Origin: a virus
Taxonomy: Duplodnaviria; Heunggongvirae; Uroviricota; Caudoviricetes
Virus record (IMG/VR): IMGVR_UViG_2740892230_000016
Direction: 5' to 3' (one strand)
Length of the DNA: 64,000 bases
The notes under the pieces were generated by a model. It was not told where the DNA came from. It searched no databases and saw only the letters and a list, made by a program, of their open reading frames with translations. Positions 35,285 to 49,113 of the stretch are shown piece after piece; positions within the stretch are counted from its first letter, which is position 1; each line of letters starts with the position of its first letter. The position numbers and the translations under genes are program-made.

Positions 35285-36475
35285 TCATTGACCTGCCTCC
35301 TGGGGAGGTTCTGGTAGCAGCATCCAGAACAAGGCGTTCCCTAACCACGATAAAGTGCCGTCGCTCAACTCCACGTATTCCCCTTGCACCTGTCCTGCCA
35401 TATACTCACCGTGCTTTGAATAAATTAAAATCCAATCATCTTGAGCGGGCATTCGCTCACTACAGCTTATCCAACCATCCGGAGTTACCGGAGAATTGCC
35501 ATTTACCAAGTCAGCTCGAACATATAGCGTGTCATCATGGTGCTGATTGTGGCTGCACCACGTTAATTCGCTTAACTCGCCATCTTCTGGCCATACTCCA
35601 GCTGTTTGCAGCCAGATATGGGCTGGCGCATCCTGGCAAGGTGTATTAACTGGAAACTTGTAAGTTTGGCTTACAGGTTGGCTACCCTGAAGCATGGCAG
35701 CGTGGCAGGCATACTCAACGCCCTTAACTGCATCTGCGCAGTAGTTATAGCGATTGCATTCCACTAATTTCCGTTTGAGTTTTTCAATTGCCTGCGCGAC
35801 ATCAGCCTGTATTACAGGAACTGGCGGAACGGCTGTTTGCTCTCGAACGTCATTAGTCGCTATCGGTTCTGCTGCCAACTGACTGGCATATTTGTTAATG
35901 GTAACGATAAGCTCTTGCTCAGCCTCATCCAGACAATCACCGATACCTCGCCTGTCACCGTCAAAATCATCGAAATCGGCACGAATCTTGGCAACCTTCA
36001 GGATTGCGGACAACACCTCACTAGGAATTACCGGATAGTTGGTTGACGTTTCCGCGATTTCCCGAAAATTATTGGTTGACGAATTCTTGTTTTCCCGAAA
36101 GTTTCCGGACTGAAGCATGGCGGCGCGGCAGGCGTTCCAGCCATCTGCGTAACAATCTCTGTGTGTCTTGAAATATGTCACCGCCCTTGGTACATCGTTT
36201 ACGTCTATTTCATCCGGCACAACCGGCGCAGGTGAGTCAGCATAAACAGGAATAACGTCCGGTTGCTCTTTATTGCTTTCATCCGTTAAAGCCCAGAATA
36301 ATTTCCCGGCCGGATGTTTGAAAATATAAGCAACTGGTTCTGCTTCCAGTGATGCCAGCGCAATTTTGTATACTTCCAGATCCATTTGTGCAGTTACTAA
36401 ATCAGGATAACGATCCATAACCGTTATATTGCGCTTAATTATCTCTATTAATTGTTCTTTAGTAAAAGTGGTCAT
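35285..36475 (-). CDS. DUF551-like prophage early-region protein (396 aa)
   Basis: C-terminal W-rich segment ending WMLLPEPP resembles DUF551 proteins of lambdoid prophages (from memory). Confidence 0.45.
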   Translation of the reverse strand: MTTFTKEQLIEIIKRNITVMDRYPDLVTAQMDLEVYKIALASLEAEPVAYIFKHPAGKLFWALTDESNKEQPDVIPVYADSPAPVVPDEIDVNDVPRAVTYFKTHRDCYADGWNACRAAMLQSGNFRENKNSSTNNFREIAETSTNYPVIPSEVLSAILKVAKIRADFDDFDGDRRGIGDCLDEAEQELIVTINKYASQLAAEPIATNDVREQTAVPPVPVIQADVAQAIEKLKRKLVECNRYNYCADAVKGVEYACHAAMLQGSQPVSQTYKFPVNTPCQDAPAHIWLQTAGVWPEDGELSELTWCSHNQHHDDTLYVRADLVNGNSPVTPDGWISCSERMPAQDDWILIYSKHGEYMAGQVQGEYVELSDGTLSWLGNALFWMLLPEPPQEAGQ

Positions 36476-36485
36476 TCGTTATGCC

Positions 36486-36683
36486 TCAATACACAAAATC
36501 TGTTTTAAATTCATGGTTACATTCTGGGCAGCATGTTTCGTAACCTTTTATTTCTTCACATGCCTGTTTTGCTCCAGAAAATTCCCAGAAATCAGCATCG
36601 CAAAGCAGATCGAAATTGTGGCCGCATTTGGGACATTCGGTATCAAGTGAAAGACTCCAGTAAGCAGTGGTGTTTTTATCCAT
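36486..36683 (-). CDS. small zinc-ribbon protein
   Basis: CPKCGH...CCPECNH paired cysteine motifs. Confidence 0.4.
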   Translation of the reverse strand: MDKNTTAYWSLSLDTECPKCGHNFDLLCDADFWEFSGAKQACEEIKGYETCCPECNHEFKTDFVY

Positions 36684-36684
36684 A

Positions 36685-36906
36685 TCACTCTCCTTTACCC
36701 GCTGCTTTCGCCTGCTCTTTAGCAAGTCGCTCCGCTTCTCTGAAATCCCAATCCACTCGATGTGCTATATCAATTGCAGAACGCACGGTCCGTTCAATTA
36801 GCGTGTCCAGATTATCAATTGTCATTGCCATATCTGGATTGCGAGATAAAATCTCCGCCCTCTGAATCTGCCAGTTGTTGCAGGTTTCAAGTAATGAGTT
36901 AGCCAT
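36685..36906 (-). CDS. hypothetical protein
   Basis: ORF, internal ATG start assumed to avoid overlap. Confidence 0.3.
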   Translation of the reverse strand: MANSLLETCNNWQIQRAEILSRNPDMAMTIDNLDTLIERTVRSAIDIAHRVDWDFREAERLAKEQAKAAGKGE

Positions 36907-36907
36907 A

Positions 36908-37639
36908 TCACTCTCCTTTGATGCGAATGCCAGCGGCGCGGGGCACATTAACTTCCACGATGCGCACAGTTGGTTTGTACATCTCAATCGCAGTCAGCCA
37001 GTCAGCGCCAGTCATGCGCTTTTCTGCATCGCCATTAGTCCACTTAACCGGTACACCAATAGCCTTCATCGCGATTTCTATTTCCCCGGCAATGGCGCTT
37101 TTTCCGCAACCAGTAAAACCAGAAACAACGACAAGAACTTCACCTTTGGCTGGTTTTATTTCCCGTGCTTCCAGTTCTGCTATGCGCTTACTTCCATCCG
37201 AGATAACACCTTCGTAATACTCACGCTGCTCGTTGAGTTTTGATTTTGCTTCCTCAAGCTCAACTCTCAGCTTCCCTACCGTTAGCGCAATATCCTCGTT
37301 CTCCTGGTCACGGCGTTTGATGTATTGCTGGTTTCTTTCCAGCTCATCCAGCAGCGCCAAGACGGTAGCCGGATTGGCTGCGGCGATGAATTCAGCATTG
37401 GCCTGCTGTTCCATTTGGAAATCTTCATCGAAACCGCTTTCAGGATGCGCTCCTTCAATTCTGCAAATGGGAATATATCCAGCAGCCTCGCGATGAATTA
37501 GTGCATCATCACCATCAAATCGGCTCTCTCCATATTCGAGAGACCACTCACCACACGTTGCTTTTTCTGCCTTTTCACGCAGTACCTGATAGTCAATCTT
37601 GCTCACTGGTTTCCTCCTTTGCGAATCTGTTCCGCCCAT
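36908..37639 (-). CDS. Ea22-like protein with C-terminal mini P-loop (243 aa)
   Basis: N-terminus IDYQVLREKAEK shared with the next gene; Walker A-like GFTGCGKS near C-terminus. Confidence 0.4.
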   Translation of the reverse strand: MGGTDSQRRKPVSKIDYQVLREKAEKATCGEWSLEYGESRFDGDDALIHREAAGYIPICRIEGAHPESGFDEDFQMEQQANAEFIAAANPATVLALLDELERNQQYIKRRDQENEDIALTVGKLRVELEEAKSKLNEQREYYEGVISDGSKRIAELEAREIKPAKGEVLVVVSGFTGCGKSAIAGEIEIAMKAIGVPVKWTNGDAEKRMTGADWLTAIEMYKPTVRIVEVNVPRAAGIRIKGE

Positions 37640-43458: not shown

Positions 43459-43468
43459 NNNNNNNNNN
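43459..43468. other. N10 scaffold gap flanked by duplicated rha 3' end
   Basis: 40 bp upstream of gap repeats sequence at about 44090-44127. Confidence 0.9.
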
Positions 43469-44028: not shown

Positions 44029-44802
44029 TTAAAGACTTAACGAGAAGCCTTTTCGGGAATTTCGATCTGACAATCTTGAAATATCCTGTAGCGTGCGGCG
44101 CATTTCTTCCGTCAGATGCTTGAAGGCGTTAAATTCGGCGACAGCGGCGTCAACGTTATAGCCTTTGCTGTGTAGCTCATTGAGGATGCGCATAGTTGGG
44201 CTTGGCATATCGAAGAGCACGGAAGCATCAAGGCTGATAACCTTGCGATCAACATAGTTCATCGTGGCGTAGGGATGGTTATCTGAGAACCACGAGAGAG
44301 GGTAGTTGATAGATAGCGTTGATTCTGGAAGCTGAAGTTGTTCTGGGATTTTTTGACTGAAATAGCAGTCTTCCAGTTTTTCGAACACTTNNNNNNNNNN
44401 GTGATGCTCTGAAAACCACGACAAAGGGAAATTGATATTCATCGCAGGAGAAGACAGGGCCAGTTGTTTCTGTTCCCATAGTTGTTTTTCCATGCGATCG
44501 AATTCAGCAATGTAGGCTTCCTTGAATGCAGCTGCTTTTTTGCCGGTGAAGCCCATCACCAGAAAAACGAAGCCGTTTTTGGTGATTTGGTACATTGGGC
44601 GTTGTTCGCCTTTGGCGTCGGTGTAGGTAACGTCCTCAAAATTGAGGGCGTTAAATTTCTCTGAGCATTCAATATTTGCAATGGCGCGCAATACGTTATC
44701 GTGTCGCTTGCAAAAATATTCGGCAACGGCAAAGGACGTAGTAACAGCGCGACCATTGGAAATGGTGATTTCAGGTTGAGAAAGGACTGGGATAGTAGCC
44801 AT
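44029..44802 (-). CDS. Rha-family phage regulatory protein (contains N10 gap)
   Basis: MATIPVLSQPEITISNGRAVTTSFAVAEYFCKRHDNVLRAI Rha-like N-terminus; strong AAGGAGG RBS 8 nt upstream of ATG at 44802; N run at 44391-44400. Confidence 0.65.
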   Translation of the reverse strand: MATIPVLSQPEITISNGRAVTTSFAVAEYFCKRHDNVLRAIANIECSEKFNALNFEDVTYTDAKGEQRPMYQITKNGFVFLVMGFTGKKAAAFKEAYIAEFDRMEKQLWEQKQLALSSPAMNINFPLSWFSEHHXXXXVFEKLEDCYFSQKIPEQLQLPESTLSINYPLSWFSDNHPYATMNYVDRKVISLDASVLFDMPSPTMRILNELHSKGYNVDAAVAEFNAFKHLTEEMRRTLQDISRLSDRNSRKGFSLSL

Positions 44803-44967
44803 AATGGCAGCCTCCTTGATTGGTGATTGATAACCACCGCTGGAGGTAGCAAGCTCGCTGGCGGTGGACTGTACAGGGTTGCTACAACTGGCAATCAAGG
44901 GAACCAGCCCGACCGAAGTCGGCCCCATACAGCCCACCATTGATAAGATGTGCGTGTATGTCGATAC

Positions 44968-45044
44968 AAAAAAAGACGCTGGCGCGTCTGTATCGCCTCG
45001 ATTGTCAGCGGGGTAGCAATCCCGACACCCGTTTTATGAGGTGT
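44968..45044 (-). ncRNA. candidate small RNA (about 77 nt) with own promoter and terminator
   Basis: Minus-strand TTGACT-17 bp-TATATT promoter at 45051-45079, no ORF, ending at terminator AGACGC-gcca-GCGTCT plus U run at 44968-44989. Confidence 0.4.
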
Positions 45045-45050
45045 TCGCCA

Positions 45051-45079
45051 AATATAGCCCCGACATCACACGCAGTCAA
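45051..45079 (-). promoter_or_regulatory. sigma70-like promoter of candidate sRNA
   Basis: -35 TTGACT and -10 TATATT with 17-bp spacer. Confidence 0.5.
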
Positions 45080-45290
45080 TACCGTTCTTTCTCAGAAACG
45101 CTTTGGCGGTGCCGCCTGCACCCCAAAACATTCCCTGTATTGGTCAGCGCCAACTTCCTGCCAGTGTTGCCCGTTCTCACGCCGTTCTCGCTCTCGCGCG
45201 GGGATACTCTCTCATCGACCGGATCGCACCCGATGATACAGCACGTTTACGTGTAGGGGTCTAAACAGGTCATTGACGCTGTAAAGCTCC

Positions 45291-45354
45291 AGATTGTTAA
45301 AGAGCATTTTGCGGCGGGTTAAGTCGCGCCGTACGACTGATTTATGTAGCCCTG
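45291..45354 (-). promoter_or_regulatory. nut-like antitermination element (boxB-like hairpin followed by rrn-type boxA)
   Basis: Minus-strand GCCCT-uacac-AGGGC (stem identical to lambda boxB) and 30 nt downstream TGCTCTTTAACAA (rrn boxA consensus). Confidence 0.4.
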
Positions 45355-45385
45355 TGTAAGGGCGCGATGTTTCTGGCTTGAAATA

Positions 45386-45430
45386 AATATAACTTGCGGT
45401 GATTTTCATGTAAATACCGTTGGTGCTTTT
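45386..45430 (-). promoter_or_regulatory. PL-like promoter with OL-like operators
   Basis: Minus-strand -35 TTTACA, 17-bp spacer, -10 TATATT; overlapping AATCACCGCAAGTTATA closely resembling lambda OR3 TATCACCGCAAGGGATA. Confidence 0.55.
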
Positions 45431-45556
45431 TAAGGGCGAGAAATTATTACTTAACTGATTTTTAAAGTGATTTATTTTTTAAGGGGGCAGATAACAGGAG
45501 GGGATATGCAAAGAAAAACCCGGCGCATGGGCCGGGCTATTTATCTGGTCCTGTTC

Positions 45557-46510
45557 TCATTCAGTAGAGTAGGGGCCAAGAAATCGCACTCCGTTGAAGT
45601 GAATAAGATGAGAAGGTGCATCAGCCACCCATACCTCTGTTTCCCATGCGATTTCACCAAGATATCGCCCCATGATGGAGCGATTTGGAAAAGCGGTCAC
45701 ATAGACAAGTCCGGCTGTTGATCCGGCAAACAGCCTGGCAAGCTCAGCATGCCGCTTCCCATCAACCGGTCCATGACTGGTGACAGACTCAACCAGTAGC
45801 AGCCAGTTTTTCGCAGTAAAATGTAGCACCACATCTGGCATTTTACCGTGTGAATCCACATCAACACCTAGCCCGGCCAGCAGTGGAGCGTCGAAGTAGC
45901 CCCACTTTTCGCCAGTGTCGCCAGCATAGACCAGCACGCTACCCGGAGCAAAACGTGGGGCGAAGTCCTCTATTATGGCACGGATAAGTTCGCTGTGCTC
46001 GCCGGGACTGAGGGTTATTTGCTGGCCCGCAGCAATTTCAACAGGGATACGATTCTGTTCGCGCTCCTTAGCATAGCGGGTAACCAGCGTTTCACGCTCG
46101 GCTAAATAGGTTGCAAGGCTATCGTGCCATGCCGGGCTGCCGAAAGTGCGTAGCATGGACAGAGCAGCAGGTTCGATCTGATAAACAGCCTTCGGGCTGT
46201 TCACTGGGCGATCGGGCTTGTCCGGATTGTAGAGGGCTACTCCAGCAGCGCAGAACTGATGCATAGACTGGCGGCGGAATGTCTCACGAGTATTGGGTGC
46301 GTAGACCTTGCCGTAGTGCTCCCGAACCCAATTCATGATTGGTGTAATGCCCACAAGCGGATTTTCCGCGTCGGCCCATGCTTTTCCCGGTGTGAGGTTC
46401 AGGAGTGCCAGCAAACACAAAGCAGAACGCTCATTCTGCTGCGCTCTGGGCAGGCCTAAGGATGCTATAATTTGCTGAGCGGCCTCAATATAATCATTTT
46501 GGTTGTTCAT
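45557..46510 (-). CDS. putative type II restriction endonuclease (317 aa), possibly BsuBI/PstI-like
   Basis: Start overlaps stop of adjacent N6-adenine methyltransferase (ATGA); size as for PstI/BsuBI endonucleases; family assignment from memory, not verified. Confidence 0.5.
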   Translation of the reverse strand: MNNQNDYIEAAQQIIASLGLPRAQQNERSALCLLALLNLTPGKAWADAENPLVGITPIMNWVREHYGKVYAPNTRETFRRQSMHQFCAAGVALYNPDKPDRPVNSPKAVYQIEPAALSMLRTFGSPAWHDSLATYLAERETLVTRYAKEREQNRIPVEIAAGQQITLSPGEHSELIRAIIEDFAPRFAPGSVLVYAGDTGEKWGYFDAPLLAGLGVDVDSHGKMPDVVLHFTAKNWLLLVESVTSHGPVDGKRHAELARLFAGSTAGLVYVTAFPNRSIMGRYLGEIAWETEVWVADAPSHLIHFNGVRFLGPYSTE

Positions 46511-47976
46511 GCAGTCAGAGCTCCTAGCTTAGCGTCAATATGTTCTTGCGTGAGAGTTTCTTGTTGCATAGCCCACTTGCCAAGCTCTATCAGAGTGTCA
46601 CGGCTTGGGTACTTAATCATCTTGAGGTCGGTTGCATTGACCTGTGTATGCCCGTTGAAGCGACGGAAATACTTATCCACTGCGGTAGTGTTCAGGAACA
46701 CGGCCAAGCCACGGGCCAGCGCCTCGGGTAACCCATGTTTGTTCTCATGAAACACGTTCATGTGATTTTCAAATCCCAACACTGAATACTCACTGAAGGT
46801 AGCAGGATCAACGACGCTTGCTACCACTCGGCGCTTTTCCTCCTTCGACGAGAAACGACGCACCACACAATAAAAACCGTTCGGGTAAAGCCACTTTTCT
46901 GTCTCGTCGTTGCGCATGATTGCGTTGGGTTTCTTCAAACCTTCCACAGGCCAGACAGTGCTACTCATACTCAAATGGCTCGGGTAGATCAGGGGAACAG
47001 TTCCTTCTTCTGGCATGCTGCGCAAATGAGCTTTCAGTCGGAAATCAACTATCGGTCCGGTCGATACCTTCACGCCAATATCAGCCAGCGAACATTGTAC
47101 GGCAGATGATAACTCAATGGTGCTTTTCTCGAGCGTGGTCGGCACATGAATAAACCGCTCCGAATCGTCCGGGTACACAATCTGGTCAAATGGGTGTTCG
47201 TAGGTGACTAGGTCAAAAAAGCTATCATCGGTCGAAGTTGTGACTGTAACAGCCTCCTGACGGCCTCCACGCTCCAGGCGGATGATAATATTTTCCTGCA
47301 ACACATCGTCATCCCTGAAAGCTTTGCTACGTGATTCGAACAAATGAATATGGCGGATTGCTGCCCGCTCAAGTATGAAATTACGGAACGGACGGTAATA
47401 CGGTCCGTTGCAGAAACTACGTGGGATTATGGCCACTATCTGCCCGCCAGGTGCAACCTCACCTACAGCCAGTGCAACAAAGGCGGAATACAGATTTACC
47501 GTCTCGATACCGACAGTGCGAAGAGCCTGCCGGTGGGCTGACTGGCTATTGATCTTCTTGTAAGGCGGATTAAGTATTGCATGGGTATAACCTCGATCCT
47601 GTAGACCTTCGGCGGTTGCCAGCTCAATATAATCCCCTTCGATGATGCGGGGCGTCACTCTCCTGTACCCGGTTAAGTGCTTCGCAAGGTGACCACACAG
47701 CTTTTTGTCGATTTCGTAGGCTGTTGCCTCGACAGACTCAAAGCCAAACTCGCCAACCAGCCAACGGTCGAGGAAGGCGCAAGACAGTGCGCCTAAACCA
47801 GCGCCTGCGTCCAGTAGACGGCAAGTTTTCATTGTGCTCGGTGGAAACAAGGAGGCCATAAAACGGGCCACGCCAGAAGGCGTCATGAACTGGCCGAACT
47901 CTGCTTTGTGTTTACGCGCGGTACGGGGAGACAGCTCGCGACGCACGCTGTCTGCGACGTCTAGCTTTTGAAGCAT
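46507..47976 (-). CDS. N6-adenine DNA methyltransferase (gamma-class), 489 aa
   Basis: SAM-binding motif LLDAGAGLGAL followed by catalytic NPPY; located directly downstream of cI in the rexAB position. Confidence 0.8.
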   Translation of the reverse strand: MLQKLDVADSVRRELSPRTARKHKAEFGQFMTPSGVARFMASLFPPSTMKTCRLLDAGAGLGALSCAFLDRWLVGEFGFESVEATAYEIDKKLCGHLAKHLTGYRRVTPRIIEGDYIELATAEGLQDRGYTHAILNPPYKKINSQSAHRQALRTVGIETVNLYSAFVALAVGEVAPGGQIVAIIPRSFCNGPYYRPFRNFILERAAIRHIHLFESRSKAFRDDDVLQENIIIRLERGGRQEAVTVTTSTDDSFFDLVTYEHPFDQIVYPDDSERFIHVPTTLEKSTIELSSAVQCSLADIGVKVSTGPIVDFRLKAHLRSMPEEGTVPLIYPSHLSMSSTVWPVEGLKKPNAIMRNDETEKWLYPNGFYCVVRRFSSKEEKRRVVASVVDPATFSEYSVLGFENHMNVFHENKHGLPEALARGLAVFLNTTAVDKYFRRFNGHTQVNATDLKMIKYPSRDTLIELGKWAMQQETLTQEHIDAKLGALTA

Positions 47977-48070
47977 AACTAATCCTCTTTACGTGGCATG
48001 ATGATGCCAACGTGCTTTTGACATCCTCCACATTCTTCAGGCGTGAAGGATGTCAAATCACTCTGTGAGC

Positions 48071-48784
48071 TCAATCAAAAGTCTCATCATTCCACTGCGA
48101 TTTGATGACCTTTCCGACAAACTGGCAGTTTTCGTTACACTCAATCATGTCGAATCGTGGGTTGAGCGGCTCCAGGTACGCTTTACCGCTCTCACGAATG
48201 AATCGTTTGAAGGTAAATTCATCGCCGTTCATTCGGGCCACGCAAAAATCGCCATCCTCGATTTCCCGTTCAGGGTCAACGAGTATCAGCATACCTTCAG
48301 GGAAGCTGGGTTTACCACCCTGCGGTGCGGTCATTGAATGCCCCTTGACCTCCAGCCAGAACGACCTGTCACTGGCTTTTGTGGTGGTGGAGATCCATTT
48401 AATCGCATCTTTTGCGGTGTACGAAATATCATCCATTGAGAATGCGCCAGCTTGTACGCAGGAGAGTAACGGATATTCGTAAGCGGGGACACGAGTTAAT
48501 GGCTCTTCAATTGCGAGCGCCATTTCTGCAATAGATTTTGCCAGGCTGGGACTGAAATCTCCGACCTTTACATTCAGTATCTTAGCAAGCTGTGCTGCGT
48601 GGCTGGCATTTATGGCGTTGATGCCAGCCATTAGCTGATTAACAGCGCTTTGGGTAACACCTAATTCATAGGCTAATGATTCCTGCGACAGGCCTAACTC
48701 TTTCTTTTTAGCGTTAAAAATACTTTTCAGACGCTTGGCGTCTTCCAGTTGCTCAGGGGTTAACGGTTTCTTTTTCATGTTCAT
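48071..48784 (-). CDS. cI: lambda-like CI repressor (237 aa)
   Basis: Collinear similarity to lambda CI over full length ([17 protein letters not shown]..., [40 protein letters not shown]); 237 aa as lambda CI. Confidence 0.9.
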
Positions 48785-48879
48785 ACCATATCACCTTTGG
48801 TTATATGTAATGAAATATCTGCGGTGTTGACATTTTAATAACTGTGCGTAATGATATGGGCATTTTGAAGGAGTCAGTT
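48785..48879. promoter_or_regulatory. OR operator/PRM/PR region
   Basis: TATCACCTTTGGTTATA (OR3-like), ATATCTGCGGTGTTGACA containing a TTGACA -35 for rightward transcription toward cro. Confidence 0.6.
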
Positions 48880-49083
48880 ATGGCGATGAAAAAAGAGACC
48901 CTGGCTGATTACGTATACAGGTTCGGCCAAAAGAAAGCCGCTAAGGACTTTGGCGTGGCGCAGAGTGCAATCAGTAAAGCGCTTCTCGTCGGACGAGAAA
49001 TATACGTCAAAACCTTTGATGACGGCACAGTTGAGGCGGAAGAGGTTCGTCCGTTCCCTGCGTTCGTAAGAGGCGATGATTAA
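48880..49083 (+). CDS. cro: Cro-like repressor (67 aa)
   Basis: [17 protein letters not shown] similar to lambda Cro KDLGVYQSAINKAI; GAAGGAG RBS 7 nt upstream of ATG at 48880. Confidence 0.8.
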
Positions 49084-49113
49084 TCCTGGACACACAGCCC
49101 ATCGGAGGTGTGA

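Follow-up and report, generated by a model that had tools for sequence, protein, structure and literature searches.

The 64,000-nucleotide stretch of viral DNA analysed here (the window; IMG/VR record IMGVR_UViG_2740892230_000016, Caudoviricetes) carries, directly downstream of a lambda-like cI gene, a pair of overlapping genes encoding a DNA methyltransferase (M) and a restriction endonuclease (R). The pair is almost certainly the EcoGIII type IIP restriction-modification (R-M) system, an isoschizomer of PstI, forming a cargo cassette of two genes within the immunity region of a Shiga toxin 2a (Stx2a)-converting lambdoid phage. The EcoGIII pair is already known, having been named, cloned and assayed, and the present analysis confirms the observation and supports its interpretation without adding new biology. 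The interval 45400–48100 (2,701 bases) spans the cI 3' end together with M, R and a terminator. Its identity is 100% with the Stx2a phages P13374 and phiON-2011, with nine other records among the 25 listed, and also with two chromosomes, those of E. coli O104:H4 C227-11 and 2011C-3493. The R-M stretch is matched in 98 phage records and in 147 of 5,426 complete E. coli genomes, with both exact proteins found on at least 1,000 public contigs and the phage-record annotations reading 'modification methylase BsuBI/PstI' and 'type II restriction enzyme BsuBI'. Furthermore, the rare codons of the window genes (AUA15, CCC21, and AGA22 in R; CUA5 and CCC17 in M) occupy the same positions as those of the REBASE-derived EcoGIII row tabulated in PMC6456624.

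The pair is named EcoGIII in C227-11 and is described as methylating and cleaving CTGCAG (PMC6602927, PMC3893438, citing Fang et al. 2012), and as protecting against lambda-like phages and not against T4, with M.EcoGIII reported to alter the expression of 1,951 genes (both PMC6602927). In two O111 lysogens, with an enzyme 99.7% similar in amino acid sequence, 100% of 2,390 and 2,434 CTGCAG sites are methylated (PMC6602927), and in O145 strain RM13514 98.8% of 2,902 such sites are methylated, compared with 0% in a strain without the phage genes (PMC3893438). The cloned EcoGIII system cuts transfer of pESBL by ~10^4 fold in experiments on the restriction of plasmid entry (PMC4288162, PMC7736820), with cleavage absent when the A of CTGCAG is methylated (PMC7736820). 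According to the literature on the identical sequence, M.EcoGIII methylates the adenine of CTGCAG on both strands and R.EcoGIII cuts CTGCAG lacking this methylation, the lysogen's own DNA being protected and incoming unmethylated phage or plasmid DNA being destroyed. With a lysogen-expressed defence in a repressor-adjacent slot, the temperate phage of the 2011 O104:H4 outbreak strain offers a textbook-style case of such cargo.

The methyltransferase gene, ecoGIIIM (46507–47976, minus strand), was identified from the list of open reading frames (ORFs), Pfam, and PADLOC, and encodes a 489-residue gamma-class N6-adenine DNA methyltransferase. Motif I (DAGAGLG, residue 56) precedes motif IV (NPPY, residue 136), which is the order of the gamma-class enzymes, and both stretches are conserved in 71 aligned homologues, with the Pfam Eco57I methyltransferase domain also recognised (E = 3e-9). 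The endonuclease gene, ecoGIIIR (45557–46510, minus strand), encodes a 317-residue type IIP restriction endonuclease of the BsuBI/PstI family, as assigned with Pfam and the Protein Data Bank (PDB) entry 2ixs. PADLOC matches both proteins over their full length (M to MTase_II, E = 5e-248; R to REase_II, E = 1.6e-168), and the two ORFs are therefore not chance occurrences. At the junction of the genes (46507–46525, minus strand), the TGA stop of M and the ATG start of R overlap in the four bases ATGA (46507–46510), and a Shine-Dalgarno sequence, AGGAG (46521–46525), lies within the M 3' end, 10 nt before the start of R. From this ribosome-binding site and overlap we infer that translation of R is coupled to that of M. 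No separate small helix-turn-helix (HTH) controller ORF of the C-protein type is found in the cI–M or M–R intervals of the ORF list, and because no C-protein is present, the order of M before R, together with the overlapping stop and start, is what would let methylation precede restriction. A preliminary description of this DNA had placed the two minus-strand ORFs at these positions downstream of cI, with the DAGAGLG and NPPY motifs in the methyltransferase and its stop overlapping the start of the 317-residue ORF, all of which was found as described.

By its sequence, R belongs to the BsuBI/PstI endonuclease family, as defined by PF06616 (E = 4.6e-61) and PF17728 (E = 1.2e-54), each of which is matched across the whole Pfam model, with bit scores of 205.2 and 184.4 for the two domains, where the cut-off is 27 for each. 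The architecture is that of an N-terminal HTH domain followed by a C-terminal PD-(D/E)XK-type domain, the latter containing P225-D226 and, further on, E241-S-V-T-S-H. Residues 8–315 align to the structure of SdaI (2ixs, E = 1.2e-77), the sole solved relative, with P225-D226 and E241 aligned to their SdaI counterparts and conserved in a 79-member family alignment, in which D226 and E241 are invariant. The PstI/BsuBI assignment of the preliminary description is thus borne out by both endonuclease domains scoring above the Pfam cut-offs, and the suggestion that the ORF is the cognate endonuclease of M is supported by its full-length domains and by the reported activity of an identical R gene (PMC3893438).

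The genes neighbouring the cassette form, as judged by sequence, a lambda-type cI/cro switch. The cI repressor gene (48071–48784, minus strand) encodes HTH_3 and Peptidase_S24 domains (Pfam), and beyond it lies a divergent Cro gene (PF09048, E = 5e-34). The right operator (oR) region, recognised from the sequence and a scan, occupies 48789–48855, with an OR3-like 17-mer, TATCACCTTTGGTTATA, at 48789–48805 adjoining the cI start, and a pR-like promoter (TTGACA-17-AATGAT; 48827–48855, plus strand) facing cro. By analogy with lambda PRM, cI may be translated from a leaderless mRNA beginning at the second ATG (48778). The annotated order in P13374 is cro, cI, methylase, endonuclease, then the leftward early genes. 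A query comprising cI and oR retrieved 98 phage records, the same number as the R-M query, with a full-length match in 75 of the 98; of the other 23, those listed match in the 3' half of cI only, at 94% identity. In every one of the 98 phage records that carry either element, the R-M genes and the 3' half of cI occur together, across two immunity types.

Looking for CI operators by naive palindrome matching and by shared k-mers gained little, and the side of the left promoter and operator (pL/oL) was located by comparison with the heteroimmune phage Lyz12581Vzw. The segment 45538–48482, containing the terminator, R, M, and the C-terminal half of cI, is common to the two phages at 95.4% identity, with divergence on both sides, at 48483–49098 (the cI N-terminus, oR, and cro) and at 45393–45537, where homology breaks at 45392/45393 and resumes at 45538. 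At the edge of this left immunity-specific patch stands a pL-like promoter (TTTACA-17-TATATT; 45386–45414, minus strand), and in Lyz12581Vzw the homologous position is occupied by a strong promoter that differs from it. The spacer of the pL-like promoter contains an operator-like 17-mer (45388–45404) resembling the near-palindrome beside the cI start. The promoter with its 17-mer, and the site at 48789–48805, are read as putative pL/oL and OR3 respectively, which places the R-M genes between oL and cI, in the rexA-rexB slot of lambda. The rexAB position suggested in the preliminary description holds in this arrangement, in which divergent immunity patches flank the block of R-M and cI C-terminal sequence and promoter- and operator-like sites stand at both edges.

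Two further observations concern this slot. In Lyz12581Vzw (L086, 2455–3305), two extra hypothetical ORFs and a look-alike terminator lie between the R terminator and pL, and the slot therefore appears to gather further cargo. In the window, the ATG of a 65-residue ORF (45212–45409, minus strand) falls within the pL-like promoter (45414–45386), in its -35 hexamer. The ORF is probably not expressed from that ATG, since the pL-like transcript would start downstream of it.

Relatives of the cassette were sought by scanning one genome per species, with loci ranked by similarity to R, and at least 598 loci encode them. Among the best 80 of these loci, R is 69–94% identical to that of the window, in lineages including Chloroflexota, Cyanobacteria, Acidobacteriota, Verrucomicrobiota, Nitrospirota, Spirochaetes, Actinomycetota, Paenibacillus, and many Proteobacteria. 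In each of the 78 loci for which upstream DNA is available, M immediately precedes R on the same strand, in most cases abutting or overlapping it, and none of these 78 has a cI homologue near the cassette. Nucleotide homology of the related cassettes to the window is limited to 45557–48017. The conserved order, lack of a nearby cI, and limits of homology therefore mark the pair as a mobile and compact unit of two genes, which the phage immunity region has captured. Conservation is higher for R than for M at all 69 loci compared (means of 80.6% and 65.3% respectively), a comparison that is biased by the ranking of loci on R similarity. The range of 69–94% identity among the best 80 loci is also unusually high for R across very distant bacterial phyla.

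The R gene is followed by an intrinsic terminator (45509–45538, minus strand) with a stem of AGCCCGGC/GCCGGGTT, comprising eight pairs of which six are G-C, then TTTCTTT, and a predicted fold of -26.2 kcal/mol (z = -3.97). At the other end of the cassette, the cI–M spacer (47977–48070, minus strand; 94 nt) contains two hairpins and the M ribosome-binding site. The larger hairpin (48017–48057, minus strand) is of 16 bp without a U tract, and stands at the edge of the imported cassette, with a smaller second hairpin at 47991–48013 and a fold of -41.8 kcal/mol (z = -4.05) predicted for the 126-nt region 47960–48085. The 16-bp hairpin could serve in RNA processing or stability, or act as an attenuator. 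A sequence scan of the minus strand of the 94-nt spacer found neither a canonical terminator nor a sigma-70 match. We propose that cI, M, and R would be transcribed as a single message from the repressor promoters, with PRM serving in lysogens and a PRE-type promoter at establishment, and that this message would end at the terminator that follows R. A PRM-driven cI-M-R transcript is the most economical reading of the sequence and is probably correct, being plausible because the three genes share a strand, the short spacer is free of a canonical terminator, and a strong terminator follows R; the full methylation of lysogen genomes agrees with it indirectly. Literature searches yielded no useful transcript mapping or description of the immunity region of P13374 or TL-2011c.

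Expression could instead be independent of PRM, with M and R driven by a promoter of their own in the 3' end of cI or in the cI–M spacer, and the adjacency to cI reflecting no more than a landing site. Related cassettes function in genomes without an adjacent cI, and a 16-bp hairpin stands between cI and M in the window. Furthermore, in comparisons with cassettes from Serratia nevei and from a Herbaspirillum metagenome-assembled genome, nucleotide homology reaches 35–41 nt upstream of the M start, and some upstream sequence has therefore travelled with the cassette. However, this imported stretch is too short for a full promoter, no sigma-70-like site was found by scanning the minus strand of the spacer, and in the phage collection the cassette is linked to cI without exception, over two immunity types, which leaves an independent promoter rather unlikely. 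A separate question is what the cassette is selected for. Type II R-M systems are said by Kobayashi and colleagues to act as addiction modules, and EcoGIII may be a real R-M system of which the main selected role is selfish stabilisation of the prophage, through post-segregational killing and host epigenetic reprogramming, with phage defence secondary. The spread of the compact M–R cassette over many phyla as a mobile unit favours such a role. The reported effects of M.EcoGIII on 1,951 genes and on growth (PMC6602927; bioRxiv 10.1101/2024.04.17.589803) point the same way. However, defence against lambda-like phages and against plasmid entry has been demonstrated directly in the cited literature, and stabilisation and defence are not mutually exclusive; a mainly selfish role is rather unlikely.

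Several observations weigh against EcoGIII as an intact and active system expressed with cI. The lysine of SdaI (E-A-V-K) is replaced by T244 in R (E-S-V-T), which might be taken to suggest that M is an orphan and that the 317-residue ORF is no nuclease or an inactive one. However, T is found at this position in 78 of the 79 family members and is therefore the norm of a PstI-like subgroup, not a lesion in the window copy. R matches each endonuclease domain over its full length and scores very strongly, without variation at D226 or E241 in the family; an identical R gene is reported to be biochemically active (PMC3893438), and EcoGIII restricts plasmids in vivo (PMC4288162, PMC7736820). On these domain scores, the conserved core, the reported activity, and plasmid restriction, an orphan methyltransferase or inactive R was rejected as extremely improbable. 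Terminator-like matches are also present inside M (47353–47368) and early in R (46421–46440), and these internal sites, or the 16-bp hairpin, could attenuate or process the cI-M-R message. The integrity of the prophage in the window is, moreover, not established, because the left part of the window is P1-like. The last point concerns the recognition site. The preliminary description had proposed checking whether CTGCAG or another site is depleted or methylated, and CTGCAG is indeed depleted in the window, with three occurrences against 17.8 ± 4.6 expected and at least three in all 100 shuffles. In a table of all 64 hexamer palindromes CTGCAG is among the most depleted; however, seven others (CACGTG, GGGCCC, GCTAGC, TCTAGA, GCCGGC, GGCGCC, and CGGCCG) are as depleted or more so. 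Depletion was therefore rejected as specific evidence for EcoGIII.

The P1-like part of the window extends from position 1 to ~35447, and shares 94–99% identity with P1, SJ46, RCS47, and many E. coli plasmids. From ~35448 rightward the window is Stx2a phage, with the P1-like and Stx homologies overlapping at ~35448–37367, a segment of ~1.9 kb encoding ead/Ea22-DUF551. In the P1-like part (1–35447) CTGCAG occurs 0 times, compared with 8–10 expected. The P1/Stx join was found in none of the complete E. coli genomes, PLSDB, or the seven retrieved chromosomal contexts of a neighbouring gene; five of these seven contexts have an integrase beside wrbA (FMN_red), and none has P1-like genes. A 46-mer near the join, compared with viral contigs, gave four matches sharing only ~1 kb, which are uninformative on the join. 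The join is either a rare recombinant or cointegrate, or an assembly chimera, and the evidence cannot tell these apart. It is doubtful that a P1-like phage-plasmid crossed over with an Stx2a prophage inside the common ead/Ea22-DUF551 segment to give a genuine recombinant. Were this the case, the stx2a early region, the cI immunity module, and EcoGIII would be physically linked to a plasmid prophage, and EcoGIII would travel with, and protect, a different replicon.

Additional features lie to either side of the immunity region. Left of R, a strong promoter (TTGACT-17-TATATT; 45079–45051, minus strand) stands ahead of an isrK-like small RNA (44969–45044, minus strand, 61.8 bits) and, in tandem with it, a C4 antisense-like RNA (44857–44944, minus strand, 77.4 bits), both recognised with Rfam, with a terminator at 44974–44989. 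These RNAs lie directly upstream of a gene encoding a Rha/Ash domain (44029–44940). By analogy, the layout of 44857–45079 looks like an antirepressor control module of the P1 immI or Gifsy-1 isrK type in the early left operon. The window also contains 18 runs of exactly 10 N between 37812 and 62988 (for example 43459–43468 and 44391–44400), two of which interrupt the ORF6N-like and Rha/Ash genes left of R, where the ORF calls are therefore artificially broken. Markers of the late and stx region are those expected for an Stx2 phage, and comprise three tRNA genes (54954–55203), STnc100 (56612–56817), and the anti-stx2 small RNA AsxR (56819–56871).

Amongst known systems, the closest is the EcoGIII system of the Stx2 phage of O104:H4 C227-11, which the interval 45400–48100 equals in DNA sequence (100%), with the same gene order and position beside cI. 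P13374 and C227-11 differ from the window in wider context only, in that the window joins the early region to P1-like DNA, and to the left of ~43407 the window resembles other Stx2a phages more closely than it does P13374. SdaI shares with R the two-domain architecture and the conserved P-D and E core, and differs in having K where R and 77 other family members have T. Its recognition sequence, CCTGCAGG, is of 8 bp rather than 6 bp. PstI of Providencia stuartii and BsuBI of Bacillus subtilis resemble EcoGIII in the PF06616 and PF17728 endonuclease family, in a gamma-class N6-adenine methyltransferase partner and, as the EcoGIII literature has it, in the recognition of CTGCAG. The PstI and BsuBI systems are chromosomal and do not lie in a phage immunity region, and the PstI genes are divergently transcribed, in contrast to EcoGIII and the 78 of 78 related loci, which have M before R on one strand.

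In lambda, rexA-rexB lie between cI and pL/oL. The preliminary description had proposed that the cassette functionally replaces Rex exclusion, which holds for the slot and for a lysogen-expressed defence, and does not hold for mechanism or homology, with Pfam and PADLOC searches matching M and R to R-M families only and revealing no homology to RexA or RexB. Like rexA-rexB, the EcoGIII genes are downstream of cI, on the cI strand, and ended by a terminator, and both are expressed in lysogens as a defence, which for EcoGIII is indicated by the complete methylation of lysogen DNA and by reports that it protects against lambda-like phages. The two differ in how that defence is exerted, with EcoGIII restricting unmethylated DNA and lambda Rex acting by abortive infection.

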